A stretch of DNA of 64,000 bases. Source: Minisyncoccota bacterium (GTDB lineage Bacteria; Patescibacteriota; Minisyncoccia; Phycocordibacterales; DATDWN01). The stretch is from positions 79,411 through 143,410 of the forward strand of contig JBAYWK010000002.1 in assembly GCA_041674105.1 (NCBI GenBank). Direction: 5' to 3'. Position numbers and translations under genes: made by a program. The notes below the pieces were generated by a model. It searched no databases and had not been told where the DNA came from. It saw only the letters and a program-made list of their open reading frames with translations. This document shows, in pieces, positions 27,171 through 62,315 of this stretch; the first letter of the stretch is position 1; each line of letters starts with the position of its first letter.

Positions 27171-27252
27171 GCCGGGATGGCGGAATTGGTAGACGCGCAC
27201 GACTCAAAATCGTGTGTCGAAAGACATGGGAGTTCGATTCTCCCTCCCGGCA
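27171..27252 (+). tRNA. tRNA-Leu (anticodon CAA)
   Basis: GCCGGGA acceptor, long variable arm, anticodon loop CTCAAAA, T-arm GGGAGTTCGATTCTCCC. Confidence 0.85.
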
Positions 27253-27256
27253 CATT

Positions 27257-27406
27257 AAAACGAAGTTTTTATACGCTGGATAGGAGCAAGAGTGCCTGTG
27301 CACTCTTGCGAGAGAATCGAACTGACCGGAGCCATGTTTTGCTAGCAAGCAAAACGGGCGAGGTGAGGCCAACAGAAATTTCTGAGCGACGGTGAGGAAA
27401 TTATCT
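27257..27406 (+). repeat. tRNA-trailing structured mini-element (family A-like) downstream of tRNA-Leu(CAA)
   Basis: contains inverted T-arm copy GAGAATCGAACTGACCGG and hairpin AATTTC-TGAGCGACGGTGAG-GAAATT. Confidence 0.55.
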
Positions 27407-27434
27407 GGGTTTCGATTCTCCCTCCCGGCACATT
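27407..27434 (+). repeat. displaced direct copy of tRNA-Leu(CAA) 3' end
   Basis: TTCGATTCTCCCTCCCGGCACATT identical over 24 nt to 27233-27256. Confidence 0.85.
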
Positions 27435-27439
27435 GATCT

Positions 27440-28330
27440 ATGAACAAAATACTGGTAATCCTAGGGCCAACAGCTACAGGTAAATCTGATTTAGCTGTAA
27501 AAGTGGCTAAAAAATACAATGGAGAAATAATCTCTGCTGATTCTAGACAAGTCTACAAAGGACTTGATATTGGTAGTGGTAAAATAACAAAAAGAGAAAT
27601 GTCGGGTGTAAGACACCATATGCTAGATGTCATCTCACCTAAAAAAACCTATTCTGTTGTAGATTGGCAAAAAGAAACAAAAAAAGTAATCAAAGATATT
27701 TTAGAAAGAAAAAAACTACCTATAATATGTGGAGGAACAGGATTCTATGTTCAATCTATTGTCCAAAACTTTACATTGCCAGAAGTTAAAGTAGATAAAA
27801 AACTAAGAAAAGAATTGGTGAATGAAAATTTAGATAAATTACTAAAAATATTAAAAAAAATGGATCTCGAGAGATTTAAAAAAATAGATCAAAAAAATAA
27901 GGTCCGTGTTATAAGAGCTATAGAAATAGCGAAAGCTTTAGGAAAAGTACCCGAAATAAAAAAAGATAAAAACCCTTACGATATTTTCCAAATAGGACTT
28001 ATTCTCTCAAAAGAAGATTTGGAACAAAAAATAAAAGAAAGACTCCAAAAAAGAATTGAAAAGGGAATGATAAAAGAAGGAGAAAAACTTCACAAAGAAG
28101 GTTTGGCTTGGAAAAGAATGCGAGAGCTTGGTCTAGAATATAAATACTTGGCAAATTTTCTGATGGGGAAAATAGACAAAAATAAAATGATAAGCGACCT
28201 CGTAAAAGAAATAATCCAATATTCCAAACGACAAATGACTTGGTTTAAAAGAGATAAGAATATAAAATGGTTTAAACCTACGGACTTTAAAACTATAAAT
28301 AAAGAGATAAAGTCGTTTCTAAATAATTAA
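27440..28330 (+). CDS. miaA: tRNA dimethylallyltransferase
   Basis: P-loop GPTATGKSDLAV and MiaA-wide co-linearity. Confidence 0.85.
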   Translation: MNKILVILGPTATGKSDLAVKVAKKYNGEIISADSRQVYKGLDIGSGKITKREMSGVRHHMLDVISPKKTYSVVDWQKETKKVIKDILERKKLPIICGGTGFYVQSIVQNFTLPEVKVDKKLRKELVNENLDKLLKILKKMDLERFKKIDQKNKVRVIRAIEIAKALGKVPEIKKDKNPYDIFQIGLILSKEDLEQKIKERLQKRIEKGMIKEGEKLHKEGLAWKRMRELGLEYKYLANFLMGKIDKNKMISDLVKEIIQYSKRQMTWFKRDKNIKWFKPTDFKTINKEIKSFLNN

Positions 28331-28346
28331 ATATTGTGATATAGTT

Positions 28347-28427
28347 TTCTTGCTTGGGCCTATAGTTTCAATGGTAAAACGTCGGTCTCCAAAACCGTTG
28401 TTCCCCGTTCGAGTCGGGGTGGGCCCG
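28347..28427 (+). tRNA. tRNA-Trp (anticodon CCA)
   Basis: GGGCCTA acceptor, anticodon loop CTCCAAA, T-arm CCCCGTTCGAGTCGGGG. Confidence 0.8.
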
Positions 28428-28429
28428 CA

Positions 28430-28549
28430 TAAAGAGAATCTTTGTGGCCCGATGAGAACAGTTTGTCGGTCTACGAGCCTAGCAAGGCTTGTCGACAAAC
28501 TGGTGACCAGAAAAATCACTTGCGACGGCAAGTGATTTTTCGAGGGAGA
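28430..28549 (+). repeat. tRNA-trailing structured mini-element (family B) downstream of tRNA-Trp
   Basis: GAACAGTTTGTCGGTCTACGAGCCTAGCAAGGCTTGTCGACAAACTGG core plus hairpin AAAATCACTTG-CGACGG-CAAGTGATTTT; near-identical copy at 38951-39083. Confidence 0.7.
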
Positions 28550-28568
28550 GATTCGGGGTGGGCCCGCA
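28550..28568 (+). repeat. displaced direct copy of tRNA-Trp 3' end
   Basis: GATTCGGGGTGGGCCCGCA vs tRNA GAGTCGGGGTGGGCCCGCA. Confidence 0.8.
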
Positions 28569-28595
28569 ATAAAGCGAAGCTTTTTGCTCAAAAAT

Positions 28596-60051: not shown

Positions 60052-60059
60052 AGTAGAAA

Positions 60060-60269
60060 CTACAATAATTTCTCATCGTCCTCGATTTTTATAAAACAAT
60101 AAGCTCAAAGCTTGCCTCCTGCCAAACTCGCTACGCACCACAAGAGTACTTCTTGTATTTCTAATTCACTTTGTTCATAAGAAAACAATGTCGCTCAAAC
60201 AGTGTCTTCGGCTGGCGCTTCTCGCTTTTGTTTTAGCTAAAAATCTGCGAATGATTCTAAATTATTGTA
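60060..60269 (+). mobile_element. MITE-like repeat (family C) with ~20-bp imperfect terminal inverted repeats and a 54-bp internal insertion, downstream of ftsZ
   Basis: termini CTACAATAATTTCTCATCG ... CGAATGATTCTAAATTATTGTAG; core co-linear with 48519-48657. Confidence 0.6.
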
Positions 60270-60377
60270 GTTTTTGGTGACTGTGAAAATTAATATCCTG
60301 TGCAATGTTTTTAAAAAGATTATTTTCTCTGGTTAGTTTTTGGTCATTAGACCAAACTAATATATAATAAACTGACT

Positions 60378-61298
60378 ATGATTTACGATTTAATAATAAT
60401 TGGTGGTGGACCAGCTGGTGTTTCTGCGGGTGTTTACTCTGCCAGAAAACAATTAAAAACACTTTTAATAACCCCAGAATTTGGTGGGCAAAGTATTGTT
60501 TCCGAAGGTATTGAAAACTGGATAGGTACGATAAAACTCTCTGGCTCTGACCTAGCCAAAAACTTAGAAAACCACCTGAAAGCCTATGCTGGAGATTTTG
60601 TAGAGATAAAAAATGAGTCAGCTGAAAATATTTCAAAATCTGAATCTGTTTTTGAAGTTAAAACTGAAAAATCTACTTATCAATCAAAATCTGTTCTAAT
60701 AGCTACAGGCAGTCACAGAAGAAAGCTGGAAATACCCGGAGCCAAAGAGTTTGATAATAAAGGAATAATTTACTGCGCATCTTGTGATGGACCACTTTTT
60801 GCTGGACAAGATGTGGTTGTTATTGGTGGTGGAAATGCGGCGCTAGAGACATCTGCCCAACTTTTATCATATTGCAAGAGTGTTACTCTTTTAAACAGAA
60901 GTGACAAACTTCGTGGGGATGAAATAACCATTTCAAAACTTTCTGAAAATAGTCATTTTAAAATAATAAAAAATGCTGTGCCAGTAGAAGTACTCGGAGA
61001 CAAATTTGTCTCAGGATTGATCTACGAAGATACTGTTACAAAAGAAAAACATACACTGACTGTGCCAGCTATTTTTGTAGAAATAGGACTCCTTCCGACA
61101 ACCTATTTTGCTAAAAATATAATCAAACTAAACGAGTACAACCAAATACCAATAAACCCAAAAGACCAGCAAACTGAAGTCTATGGTATTTGGGCAGCTG
61201 GAGACTGTACAGACGCTATGTACCACCAAAACAACATAGCCTCAGGAGACGCTGTGAGGGCCCTGGAGGACATATATGTGCATATAAAGACAAAGTAG
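60378..61298 (+). CDS. trxB: thioredoxin-disulfide reductase
   Basis: FAD motif IIIGGGPAG, redox-active CASCDG, NAD(P) motif VVIGGGNAA. Confidence 0.85.
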   Translation: MIYDLIIIGGGPAGVSAGVYSARKQLKTLLITPEFGGQSIVSEGIENWIGTIKLSGSDLAKNLENHLKAYAGDFVEIKNESAENISKSESVFEVKTEKSTYQSKSVLIATGSHRRKLEIPGAKEFDNKGIIYCASCDGPLFAGQDVVVIGGGNAALETSAQLLSYCKSVTLLNRSDKLRGDEITISKLSENSHFKIIKNAVPVEVLGDKFVSGLIYEDTVTKEKHTLTVPAIFVEIGLLPTTYFAKNIIKLNEYNQIPINPKDQQTEVYGIWAAGDCTDAMYHQNNIASGDAVRALEDIYVHIKTK

Positions 61299-61910
61299 TT
61301 ACTTTATATACTTAGCCACTTTTTGGTAAATTCTATCAGCAATTATGGCGTAGCCTTCATCATTTGGATGCACTGTATCGTACATATATTCTTTCTTAGT
61401 TATTACCCCCGATAAGACATCTGAAACATAAATAGACCCTGTTTCTCGGGCCAGATTTTCAAAAGGTTTTTCAAATTTATCTGACAAAACTCCCCCACGA
61501 ACTCCGAGCAAAACGACCATAGATCCACCAGACTGAAACTTGGTTATAATTTGCCTCAAATTATTAAAAGTTTCTTCTTGAGGAACTTTTTTTAAATAAT
61601 CATTTCCTCCCAAAAGTAGTACGACTGTACCTGGATTTTTTTTAATCGCCTCATTTATTCTAGCCAAACCTTCTTTAGTAGTATCACCAGATACACCTAG
61701 ATTTACTATTGGTTTTCCTAATTTTTGAGATAAAAGATAAACAAAACCTTTTCCGTCTGTTGCTCCGACTCCCCTAGTCAAACTATCGCCAAAAGCTACA
61801 ATAGTGTCATTTTTTGGAGGATAATTTTTGATTATTGGACTTGAATTGGAGAAAAAATAAACACCCAAAGCAAAGGTGGCTAAAACCGCGACAATAATAT
61901 ATTTTCTCAT
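61299..61910 (-). CDS. SGNH/GDSL-family hydrolase (secreted esterase/lipase-like)
   Basis: signal peptide then VAFGDSLTRG (GDSL block I), block III GGNDY, block V DxxHP (DTVHPN). Confidence 0.75.
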   Translation of the reverse strand: MRKYIIVAVLATFALGVYFFSNSSPIIKNYPPKNDTIVAFGDSLTRGVGATDGKGFVYLLSQKLGKPIVNLGVSGDTTKEGLARINEAIKKNPGTVVLLLGGNDYLKKVPQEETFNNLRQIITKFQSGGSMVVLLGVRGGVLSDKFEKPFENLARETGSIYVSDVLSGVITKKEYMYDTVHPNDEGYAIIADRIYQKVAKYIK

Positions 61911-62024
61911 TTAGATAATTGTAACAGAAAAGGAAGACTCCACAAATAAAATGTTTGTACCTAGAACAACTTATACAATCTTTTTTGCATTTTTATAGAA
62001 AAATGTTAGAATATTGCGGTTATT

Positions 62025-62096
62025 GGCCCTATCGTCTAACGGTTAGGACATCGCCTTTTCAAGGCGGTAATCGGGGTTCGATTCCCCGTAGGGTCA
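62025..62096 (+). tRNA. tRNA-Glu (anticodon TTC)
   Basis: GGCCCTA acceptor, D-arm GTCTAACGGTTAGGAC, anticodon loop TTTTCAA, T-arm CGGGGTTCGATTCCCCG. Confidence 0.8.
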
Positions 62097-62098
62097 TG

Positions 62099-62264
62099 CA
62101 AAGCAGAATCGCCGAAAGGCGATTTTTGCATGACCCTACAGAAATTGCATGTTATGCAATTTCGCGGGGAATCGAAAAGCGGAGCGGGGTACCAGTCCAG
62201 TAGGACTGGTCGCGAGCTGCGGACACGACTTTTCCGAGCGACGGCGAGGAAAAAGTTGCGGACG
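62099..62264 (+). repeat. tRNA-trailing structured mini-element (family A) downstream of tRNA-Glu
   Basis: hairpins AATCGCC-GAAA-GGCGATT, AATTGCAT-GTT-ATGCAATT; GGGGAATCGAAAAGCGGAGCGGGGTACCAGTCC-AGTA-GGACTGGTCGCGAGCTGCGGACACGA; CTTTTCC-GAGCGACGGCGA-GGAAAAAG; inverted tRNA 3' copy CATGACCCTACAG. Confidence 0.7.
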
Positions 62265-62281
62265 ATATCCCCGTAGGGTCA
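62265..62281 (+). repeat. displaced direct copy of tRNA-Glu 3' end
   Basis: ATATCCCCGTAGGGTCA vs tRNA GATTCCCCGTAGGGTCA. Confidence 0.8.
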
Positions 62282-62315
62282 CAAAATTATACACCGTACG
62301 ATATGATATAGTATT

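Follow-up and report, generated by a model that had tools for sequence, protein, structure and literature searches.

Short insertions with target-matched arms behind the tRNA genes of a Minisyncoccota contig and of related Patescibacteria

Genomic context

The stretch analyzed here, called the window throughout, is a 64,000-nt segment (positions 79,411 to 143,410, forward strand) of contig JBAYWK010000002.1 from the Minisyncoccota bacterium assembly GCA_041674105.1, and the subject of this report is a set of short, G+C-rich segments that follow most of its tRNA genes and end in a displaced copy of the 3' end of the same tRNA. Ten tRNA genes were found in the window, the same set being returned by ARAGORN and Rfam and all ten scoring as full tRNAs. 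The open reading frames (ORFs) scanned with Pfam, about 55, show ordinary housekeeping genes, among them topA, gyrA, relA, clpB, ftsA/ftsZ and the genes for IF-2 and seryl-tRNA synthetase. The MiaA protein encoded at 27440–28330 is identical to an NCBI protein of Candidatus Paceibacterota (Parcubacteria), in agreement with the origin of the window in a metagenome-assembled genome of that taxon. Seven of the ten tRNA genes carry a full insert and an eighth, tRNA-Leu(TAG), carries a truncated one, with three further copies in tandem behind tRNA-Lys (Table 1). For comparison, the window was pooled with 82 Patescibacteria loci into a wider sample of 1.35 Mb and 149 tRNAs; labels such as L001 denote the Patescibacteria or metagenome loci with which the window was compared. 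In what follows, R is the functional segment of the gene from T-loop to 3' end, A its antisense copy and D its displaced direct copy.

A first-pass annotation made from the window sequence alone had listed six tRNAs (Gln, Leu-CAA, Trp, Tyr, Lys and Glu) with an insert and a copy of their own 3' end. All six were recovered, but the count of full inserts is seven: tRNA-Leu(TAA), correctly described as having a degenerate 3' copy, has a full element whose decayed D abuts tRNA-Lys. The repeats quoted at the time are exact and correctly placed (TTCGATTCTCCCTCCCGGCACATT at 27233 and 27411; TGTGCGCCGGGAAGGATT at 30706 and 30888). The tRNA 3' end recurs in direct orientation within 300 nt downstream, with a longest exact copy of 15 nt for Gln, 24 nt for Leu-CAA, 16 nt for Trp, 18 nt for Tyr, 15 nt for Lys and 14 nt for Glu, and upstream control regions held exact copies of only 6–11 nt. 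The copies are specific to their own tRNA: a perfect 14/14 copy lies no more than 400 nt downstream of 24 of the 149 tRNAs, compared with 4 of 736 cases when 3' ends were reassigned to random other tRNAs. The high G+C content of the inserts was also borne out (40–55%, against 34.8% for the window), while their length, given as 100–165 nt, was measured as 140–185 nt from the end of the tRNA to the end of the copy.

Other parts of the first description had to be revised. The inverted copy was rightly seen but is not confined to the three tRNAs named at the time (Gln, Leu-CAA, Glu); Tyr, Leu-TAA and Lys likewise have exact inverted matches, of 11–16 nt, tRNA-Trp has a degenerate one only, and the antisense arm is a general, target-matched feature. 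At tRNA-Leu(TAG), where an inverted copy alone had been reported, the element is truncated, with its left half kept and its core and displaced copy absent; the orthologous Leu-TAG site of L006 shares this left arm, and type C cores come after it. The Gln element lies outside the range of 27171–62282 to which the elements had been assigned, and the inventory was incomplete, in that it missed the three tandem copies, the phylum-wide spread and the targets in transfer-messenger RNA (tmRNA) genes, D-loops and protein genes.

The tRNA-Val gene (62880–62960) is one of three tRNA genes in the window with an encoded CCA. The ATG of the gene 3' of it, which by eye has a tsaD/Kae1-like N-terminus, begins at the last CCA base, and owing to this overlap tRNA-Val has neither a trailer nor an element.

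Table 1. Coordinates of the elements and their parts in the window (CM, covariance model; anti-, antisense to the named part of the tRNA; core type in brackets)
Element	Span	Strand	tRNA gene	Hairpin 1	Anti-acceptor	Hairpin 2	Anti-T arm	Core	D	CM match	Remarks
tRNA-Gln	14377..14559	-	14560-14631	14538-14558		14512-14527	14497-14511	14395-14496	14377-14394	39 bits, E = 3e-9	
tRNA-Leu(CAA)	27254..27434	+	27171-27253	27257-27269	27275-27285, degenerate	27286-27309	27310-27322	27323-27410 (A)	27411-27434, exact 24-nt copy	98 bits	
tRNA-Trp	28429..28568	+	28356-28428	28431-28443			28446-28459, degenerate anti arm, GAGAA variant	28460-28552 (B)	28553-28568	E = 3e-7	Ancestral trailer hairpin and terminator begin at 28569
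tRNA-Tyr	30706..30888	-	30889-30972	30863-30886	30847-30857	30826-30846	30812-30825	30724-30811 (A1)	30706-30723	108 bits	Host terminator 30675-30701 (terminator scan)
tRNA-Leu(TAA)	38706..38874	+	38621-38705	38705-38727	38731-38739	38740-38760	38762-38774	38775-38861 (A1)	38862-38874, decayed	96 bits	D adjoins tRNA-Lys
tRNA-Lys	38951..39099	+	38875-38950	38955-38977			38980-38991	38992-39083 (B)	39084-39099		Core 92% identical to Trp core
Tandem run of three further copies	39100..39470	+									Behind displaced Lys 3' end
Tandem copy 1		+		39106-39130	39135-39143 (anti)			39144-39206, short		39131-39216, 29 bits	
Tandem copy 2		+			39231-39239 (anti)			39240-39327		39227-39339, 98 bits	Short repeat 39328-39334
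Tandem run, end		+						39411-39465, partial		39382-39470, 16 bits	Type C remnant 39361-39401
tRNA-Leu(TAG), truncated	39987..40066	+	39904-39986	39995-40012	40020-40030	40031-40049	40051-40066	absent	absent		
tRNA-Glu	62098..62281	+	62024-62097	62106-62124	62128-62139	62140-62163	62164-62176	62177-62262 (A1)	62263-62281	105 bits	R 62077-62096

Structure of the elements

Read along the tRNA strand, an element follows the tRNA (with R) as a small hairpin, an anti-acceptor segment, often a second hairpin, an anti-T-stem/T-loop segment, a core and D, a layout that may be abbreviated gene-R-hairpin-A-core-D, in which R completes the intact gene. A consists of the antisense of the acceptor 3' strand and of the T-stem 3' strand and T-loop and stands directly 5' of the core; D stands directly 3' of it and is followed by the original flank, namely the ancestral trailer and terminator. 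A is able to pair either with R or with D. The A:D pairing closes the core and, where the gene is a tRNA gene, imitates the acceptor and T stems. The mimic includes the discriminator base in the Glu, Tyr and Leu-CAA elements and in the Trp element of L011, and is absent or decayed in many copies.

Folding of single sequences placed A and D in a closing stem around a three-way junction, with z-scores of -4 to -7; the Glu element, for example, folds into the A:D closing stem and two stem-loops. Stem-loop I has a 3-bp covarying base (GAC/GUC, GCC/GGC, AGC/GCU, ACC/GGU, ACU/GGU), then an invariant internal loop, 5'-GGA/GA-3', of the tandem-GA, k-turn-like kind, and then a variable hairpin. A long hairpin, in which a GCGACGR cap is common, forms stem-loop II. 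A structure drawn by hand for the complete element disagreed with the MAFFT alignment at stem-loop II and at the closing stem, and the RNAalifold consensus, in which compensatory changes affect 15 of 20 pairs among seven cores, was used instead. Several loci have at this position a third and smaller type of core (C).

A covariance model was built from seven window and L003 cores with the RNAalifold consensus structure and searched against 1.32 Mb, yielding 32 copies with E < 1, of which 27 had E < 1e-3. Of these strong matches, 22 lie 18–79 nt behind a tRNA on the same strand and two more are the first two tandem copies behind the Lys element. Because the matches include the type B cores of Trp and Lys, types A and B belong to one family. 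In the alignment of all 32 copies 94.9% of cells were paired, compared with 62% after shuffling and about 45% with partners slid, the first figure being inflated by the fitting of the alignment to the model; double changes were present in 20 of 20 pairs. In 27 of 31 elements the fold of the tRNA-sense strand was more stable than that of the complementary strand (p = 6e-6). The core is regarded as a candidate structured RNA with putative k-turn-like motifs, absent from Rfam.

Some copies have (U)GAGAA where the antisense T-loop otherwise reads (A/U)UUCGAA (window tRNA-Trp, L009 Tyr, L020, L076, L121, L135, L148, L173, L174). In these the closing stem contains a tandem-GA internal loop facing CGAA. 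Stem-loop I has this motif too, and its presence at both positions hints at a common protein or tertiary contact. Many distant loci share a conserved form of hairpin 2, the hairpin that divides A where acceptor and T stem meet, namely GCAAGC(A/C)AACUGCUU(U/G)GCUUGC (L009, L012, L069, L131, L148, L158, L172 and others); the window copies have other sequences.

Occupancy of tRNA sites

Filled and empty sites were compared between related loci. L001, whose MiaA is 86% identical to that of the window (gene at 27440–28330), has an exactly empty tRNA-Trp site: its tRNA-Trp is joined directly to the trailer that in the window comes after D, the 140 nt of the window element (28429–28568) are absent, and the flanks are identical at 125 of 129 and 38 of 40 positions. 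Nor are the sites filled throughout the phylum, since orthologous tRNAs are occupied in 10 of 45 species for Leu-CAA, 9 of 42 for Trp and 5 of 24 for Tyr, a patchy occupancy of about 20%. The Leu-CAA element has an ortholog in L003 with 90% identity, and at tRNA-Tyr the window and L003 share the left arm, including an identical hairpin 2, with unrelated cores (type C in L003). Tandem and nested arrays were also seen, and within the window the arms of the Trp and Lys elements match Trp and Lys respectively despite cores that are 92% identical.

The first-pass annotation had proposed integration into tRNA genes by a miniature, non-autonomous element or, alternatively, a tRNA-linked structured RNA. 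The empty Trp site upholds insertion into a tRNA gene, and the empty site, patchy occupancy, lack of ORFs and covarying core all agree with the miniature-element or structured-RNA description; site-specific integration of the integrase type is a poor fit, as the arms differ at every target.

Two further observations were made at these loci. The tRNA-Leu(CAA) gene is inverted in L001 (9858–9940) and L004 (5345–5427) relative to the window and L003 and is followed there by a LAGLIDADG ORF instead of a structured element; the inversion and the swapped neighbor mark the parB-miaA intergenic region as a rearrangement hot spot. Runs of N occur inside or beside elements in public assemblies (L015, behind tRNA-Leu 9248–9329; L018, behind tRNA-Leu 526–609; L003:10961–10970), which suggests that tRNA loci are places where the repeats break Patescibacteria assemblies or leave scaffold gaps.

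Target range

Metagenome contigs were scanned with a core-only pattern (CGAGKCGGGGTCGC...TGTGACC), giving at least 120 stretches, 70 of them usable in having enough upstream sequence. Among the matches listed, a same-strand tRNA lies just upstream in 51 of the 70, representing at least 17 amino-acid types, and in 22 of those 51 the 16 nt that begin with the final C of the core agree with that tRNA at 15–16 of 16 positions, starting at about C56. One conserved core is thus found behind almost any tRNA, with arms that match locally each time.

Three positions within tRNA genes were distinguished, X being the gene segment just 3' of the insertion point that is present three times, as R, A and D. 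The usual insertion point is the T-loop, between positions 55 and 56. In a second class the insertion is at the very 3' end of the tRNA, X comprises the last few nucleotides together with the trailer, and a long hairpin, in many cases a perfect one, has A as its 3' arm; the arms of the tandem copies behind tRNA-Lys are of this '3'-terminal' class, which is found in metagenome loci too. The third class is in the D-loop and has the mirror-image layout D-core-A-loop-R-gene, the order being displaced 5' fragment, hairpin, core, short copy of the downstream tRNA, antisense 5' end, spacer and intact tRNA; the antisense copy of the tRNA 5' end is clear in L184.

The same R/A/D logic applies at tmRNA 3' ends, at the rplL stop codon and at the 3' end of topA (L023, L007, L156). 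At topA the gene ends in ~20 substitute codons and a stop codon, followed by a hairpin, a 9–10-nt antisense arm, the core and the displaced original end, and the antisense arm covaries with the gene between loci (GGTTTTGGTG vs CACCAAAACC; GTTTTCGTG vs CACGAAAAC). The junctions, marked here by a slash, are GGTT/CGAA in the T-loop, ..GCG/CACAA at the tRNA 3' end and GGCA/CGAAAAC in topA, and the duplicated segment is 8–65 nt long. In the topA-relA spacer of L003 (6690–6790) a degenerate core stands between perfect 18-bp arms, AACCTTATATTTTTGGAG and CTCCAAAAATATAAGGTT, either of which may be native; this copy shows that the family also lands in plain intergenic DNA. A viral origin was considered through a scan of IMG/VR with CGGGGTCGCN{18,48}TGTGACCGA. 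All 22 matches lay on GC-rich contigs, none was element-like, a tRNA was nearby in only one (L098), and they were set aside as chance matches.

Origin of the three copies

R and D were compared where they differ. At topA, the codon differences between them are 10 synonymous vs 3 non-synonymous in L023 and 13 vs 3 in L156; as most are synonymous, both copies probably evolved as coding sequence in different lineages before they were juxtaposed, and R and D at topA are, judging from these sequences, probably orthologous gene ends from different lineages. CCA is encoded in R and not in D at the window tRNA-Lys, L006 Leu-TAA and L049, and in D and not in R at L006 Leu-CAA, L008, L011 and L015; the native tRNA-Lys of L003 lacks CCA, like D of the window Lys element. 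At tRNA-Trp the hairpin beside R differs from the ancestral hairpin beside D by one compensated base pair. A simple target-site duplication is ruled out by these differences in CCA, synonymous sites and Trp trailer hairpins. They point instead to different evolutionary origins of R and D, with one of the copies traveling with the element, much as at icd with phage 21 and e14, which supply an alternative gene end with synonymous differences.

The third copy follows R. Pairing of A with R was at least as good as pairing with D in 32 of 32 T-loop elements tested and the reverse was never seen (p = 0.0013), and D is often reduced to its first 7–9 nt among the matches listed. A is kept complementary to the functional copy R, and D is left to decay.

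Such gene ends recall integrase-dependent mini elements, similar to the cis-mobilizable 'CIME' remnants of integrative conjugative elements; these would be double-stranded attL-insert-attR units mobilized in trans by a tyrosine or serine recombinase encoded elsewhere in the genome, and the core would hold protein-binding sites. This explanation accounts for direct repeats of the gene end around the insert, for the regenerated gene and its alternative end with synonymous differences as in phage 21 and e14, for tandem accretion at one site and for the use of the T-arm, an integrase crossover site (and a classic one, as Williams is said to have put it in 2002). It gives the antisense arm no role, however, and an attP is fixed for each integrase, whereas one and the same core is found here with arms that change across at least 17 tRNA types, tmRNA and protein genes. 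A double-stranded circle of 90–190 bp would moreover be a poor recombination substrate, the covarying, strand-asymmetric hairpins point to a folded single strand and not to duplex protein sites, and the 64-kb window holds no integrase. Integrase-dependent mini elements are accordingly considered improbable.

The behavior of A and D also bears on the possibility that the host benefits from a tRNA-like RNA. Here A-core-D would be co-transcribed and cut by RNase P and RNase Z to act as a protein platform or decoy, and the duplication would only supply the tRNA-like handle of the RNA. Hairpin 2 of the Glu, Tyr, Leu-CAA and other elements splits A exactly at the acceptor/T-stem junction, so that A:D reproduces a coaxial acceptor/T minihelix with discriminator base; the sense strand folds better; the tandem-GA (k-turn-like) motifs and the conserved GCGACGR loop may suggest protein binding; and in the window strong terminators come after D, not after the tRNA. 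By virtue of its acceptor and T stems and discriminator base, A:D at many tRNA sites resembles the tRNA-like domain of tmRNA, mascRNA, plant-virus tRNA-like structures and the 3' end of the Mauriceville retroplasmid of Neurospora, which is known to recombine with mitochondrial tRNA genes, and by analogy RNase P, RNase Z and the CCA-adding enzyme would be predicted to act on it. Unlike these structures, it is not fixed but copies the neighboring tRNA, is absent at protein-gene and D-loop sites, and has a D that decays. The decay of D (as in Leu-TAA) while A tracks R, the many copies that keep only 7–9 nt of D, the presence of the same core without a tRNA-like stem at topA and rplL ends and in D-loop pseudo-copies, and the occupancy of only about 20% of orthologous sites, with truncated and tandem copies, make a host-beneficial RNA of this kind an unlikely explanation.

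Searches for associated proteins and known families

No ORF lies within the window elements, which are, as first supposed, too small for a recombinase. A search of the 64-kb window for Y1 HUH transposases (TnpA or RAYT), DEDD, RuvC and TnpB found none. The elements also do not correspond to a described class: an Rfam search at gathering thresholds matched only the ten tRNAs, and no paper in the searchable literature describes them. Permissive Rfam searches (E <= 5) gave sub-threshold noise only, such as c4-a1b1 at 16 bits, and produced no match to HEARO, IS605-associated or other guide scaffolds, or introns. The best match to DUF3800-XI RNA (RF02975), 19.4 bits at 39264–39323, is below the gathering threshold of 37.8, and the DUF3800 RNA section of Weinberg 2017 describes nothing that resembles the elements.

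Several other candidates were set aside. Comparison by eye of the junction and loop sequences with consensus sequences found no fit to self-cleaving ribozymes (hammerhead, hairpin, twister, pistol, hatchet, HDV), and group II domain V was rejected since the bulge of stem-loop I, which contains AGC, is on the wrong strand. Group I and group II introns were rejected because no Rfam intron matched at E <= 5 and the upstream tRNA is already complete; the tRNA introns described so far in Patescibacteria are group I introns at position 35/36 (bioRxiv 10.1101/2025.07.03.662931). A primer-binding-site-like arm for tRNA-primed reverse transcription does not fit the Glu element, in which the antisense arm is complementary to the genomic trailer (TGC), not to CCA. 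Miniature inverted-repeat transposable elements do not fit in that the inverted arms (A and D) differ in each copy and equal the local target, with a repeat length of 8–65 nt that is not fixed; a survey of such elements (PMC11602168) makes no mention of these bacteria.

Guide RNAs acting with a protein encoded elsewhere, such as IS110/IS1111 bridge or seek RNAs, TnpB/IscB omega RNAs or TIGR-Tas, would explain why arms complementary to both strands of the target, here the tRNA gene, differ from target to target. The k-turn-like GA motifs recall the box C/D-like tigRNAs, and a scaffold with a 3' target-matching segment resembles omega RNA; TIGR-Tas is common in Candidate Phyla Radiation (CPR) bacteria and consists of tandem units of ~36 nt with two 9-nt spacers beside a tas gene with a Nop domain (PMC12045711). 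The elements instead are single units of 90–190 nt behind tRNAs and not arrays of 36-nt units. Their arms cover one target segment, pair with each other and form a closing stem, whereas IS110 and TIGR guides address adjacent half-sites, and they are the physical insertion junctions and not internal loops. No Nop, DEDD, RuvC or TnpB gene is nearby in the window and no Rfam guide scaffold matched at E <= 5, and a guide RNA is judged still less probable than the two explanations weighed above.

Homing-endonuclease cassettes, of which the elements would be footprints or ORF-less derivatives left by double-strand-break repair in tRNA genes, were considered because endonuclease genes occupy the same places in relatives. 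A 77-aa GIY-YIG ORF lies inside an element of L028, between tRNA-Trp (16341–16413, minus strand) and its 3' copy; LAGLIDADG ORFs lie after tRNA-Leu(CAA) and just before tRNA-Tyr in L004 (4749–5270 and 9013–9801, both minus strand); and an HNH ORF of L003 (20064–20543, plus strand) lies between tRNA-Cys and tRNA-Leu(TAA), ending 1 nt before the latter. Endonuclease ORFs were found, however, in only one of about 33 tRNA-copy pairs spaced 400 nt or less, and only one longer pair (802 nt) contained any ORF. The conserved part is a folded non-coding core and not a decayed ORF, a filled allele with an intact tRNA would not be immune to an endonuclease that recognizes the tRNA gene, and the endonuclease genes look to have invaded secondarily, like those of group I introns. 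Of the explanations considered, descent from homing cassettes is the least credible.

The L004 LAGLIDADG ORF before tRNA-Tyr has its stop codon inside the 5' end of the tRNA, and L001:9572–9841 (minus strand) holds a shortened, 89-aa homing-endonuclease-like ORF. Longer, ORF-bearing versions of the element were sought among the 149 tRNAs, where one tRNA-copy pair was more than 400 nt apart: in L062, behind tRNA-Trp 2737–2810 (minus strand), a 261-aa nucleotidyltransferase-like ORF precedes the tRNA 3' copy located 802 nt away. In L004 a related NTP_transf_2/Polbeta gene (6574–7215) comes after tRNA-Trp, and the two genes may be cargo at the same site.

Among the remaining genes of the window, a 410-aa ORF without a Pfam match (42777–44009, plus strand) lies beside an SPFH/Band 7 protein gene (41530–42780); this 42–44 kb region is the GC peak of the window (43% G+C) and is not an element. 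Six ORFs follow at 44127–46592 (minus strand), five non-overlapping and one partly overlapping, and all five that were scanned matched T4SS_pilin (PF18895); beyond them are genes for a solute-binding protein and a methyltransferase. A Mrr-type restriction endonuclease gene beside one for a DUF2726 protein (11673–13060, minus strand) and a gene for a Schlafen/AlbA_2 protein with a bacterial PH domain (5353–6324, plus strand) may be defense genes. Replication-strand bias could not be used in the analysis, as GC skew in the window tracks gene orientation.

Proposed mechanism

As a whole, the data are best explained by a family of mobile insertions, spread through the phylum Patescibacteria, of ~90–190 nt, protein-less and furnished with target-matched arms; a probability of about 0.6 is given to this reading, and the elements are best read as non-autonomous. 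The mobile form might be a single-stranded, sense-strand unit, R-hairpin-A-core, in a dumbbell fold. Such a unit would open at the core/R boundary and be joined into the target strand at the Y/X boundary, with A splinting the incoming target X in register with the X of the element itself. A single strand swap at the core/X boundary by a trans-acting enzyme would then produce Y-R-hairpin-A-core-D-flank, and use of the other core boundary would produce the mirror, 5' (D-loop) class. The predicted excision junction is the 3' end of the core joined to R and hairpin 1; for Trp it would read ...GAGGGAGAGAT/TCGGGGTGGGCCCGCA/TAAAGAGAATC, as against ...GCA/ATAAAGCGAAGC in the chromosome. The universally conserved T-loop sequence GGTTCGAATCC would serve as the seed for the spread of one core among all tRNAs.

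This splinted single-strand model would explain why R and A are inherited together, why the junction is fixed to the nucleotide (GGTT/C in the T-loop), why structure is found on one strand only, why the T-loop is the favored site and why the T-loop-like topA sequence GGCACGAAAAC is an occasional target. The new arms needed on a jump to another gene might arise by gene conversion from D, the quasi-palindrome R-hairpin-A then being corrected. Spread from lineage to lineage by natural transformation and homologous recombination is plausible, because DprA is encoded in the window. The element is bracketed by two copies of a conserved gene segment.

A number of points weigh against these proposals. 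About 55 ORFs of the 64-kb window were searched without a Pfam match to a recombinase/integrase, transposase, reverse transcriptase, HUH nuclease or Nop domain, and the enzyme and the free or circular form are postulates of the model. The model does not itself explain how new R and A arms are made. The argument from synonymous differences is based on three topA loci, and the imported copy could be either R or D. Tandem-GA motifs and GNRA-like loops look RNA-like, and the folded strand may be DNA or RNA; hairpin 1 in the window is mostly too weak to score as a terminator, which makes co-transcription with the tRNA possible. The inflated pairing percentage of the 32-copy alignment belongs here as well.

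It is proposed more tentatively, and with greater doubt than confidence, that the elements constitute a new class: a single-stranded (DNA or RNA) dumbbell with a core of ~90 nt, programmable by its sense and antisense arms, carrying a spare gene end and moved by a host or unlinked enzyme.

Comparison with known elements

The family of mobile insertions favored here is placed, as a new variant, among the integrative elements that regenerate gene ends. Like P4-like islands at tRNAs and phage 21 and e14 at icd, its members insert inside a gene end, regenerate an intact gene and leave the displaced end as a direct repeat, with a substitute end that is synonymously different at topA; a preference for the T-loop and tandem accretion are also shared with tRNA-targeting integrative elements. 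In contrast to P4-like islands and phage 21, they are 90–190 nt long with no integrase or ORF, always have an antisense copy of the target, possess a covarying, strand-specific fold, and use one core whose arms are re-tailored for at least 17 tRNA types and other genes.

In being small, hairpin-rich, strand-specific and non-autonomous, the elements resemble IS200/IS605-type single-strand transposons and their ORF-less derivatives (PATEs, REPINs). In IS608 the cleavage sites are chosen by pairing with short internal guides and a single-stranded circle is pasted into a single-stranded target. When a gene is transcribed, it is its sense strand that is exposed. The mechanism proposed above would resemble this single-strand 'peel and paste' with a much longer guide. 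The guide-like arm is target-specific and 7–25 nt long, compared with a fixed 4 nt in IS200/IS605; a gene segment is duplicated, where IS200/IS605 duplicates none; and there is no fixed tetra- or pentanucleotide target.

Choice of target by complementarity borne on the element is shared with group II introns (exon- and intron-binding sites), IS110 bridge RNAs and TIGR-Tas. Class C group II introns likewise sit just behind terminator stem-loops, and IS110 and TIGR address both DNA strands. Group II introns differ from the elements, whose 80–110-nt core lacks intron domains and which have no intron-encoded protein in the window. For IS110/IS1111 the differences are the lack of a DEDD recombinase gene in the window and arms that overlap one segment, and for TIGR-Tas the lack of a Nop domain in the window.

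If confirmed, the family would be a mobile element of the CPR, abundant and not described to date, present at 7–8 of 10 tRNAs in the window and about one-fifth of orthologous sites, that spreads selfishly through single-copy essential genes without harm by bringing a spare gene end. It would account for G+C-rich 'islands', tRNA 3' pseudo-fragments and assembly breaks near tRNAs in Patescibacteria, and gene ends would in this way be moved between lineages, as in the case of topA. Two short complementary arms on either side of a constant core seem to encode the choice of target, the same logic as in programmable insertion tools such as group II introns, IS110 bridge RNAs and CRISPR-associated transposons with a different anatomy. 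If the elements do form a new class, each would repair the gene that it interrupts by means of its spare end and would be naturally 'programmable'.

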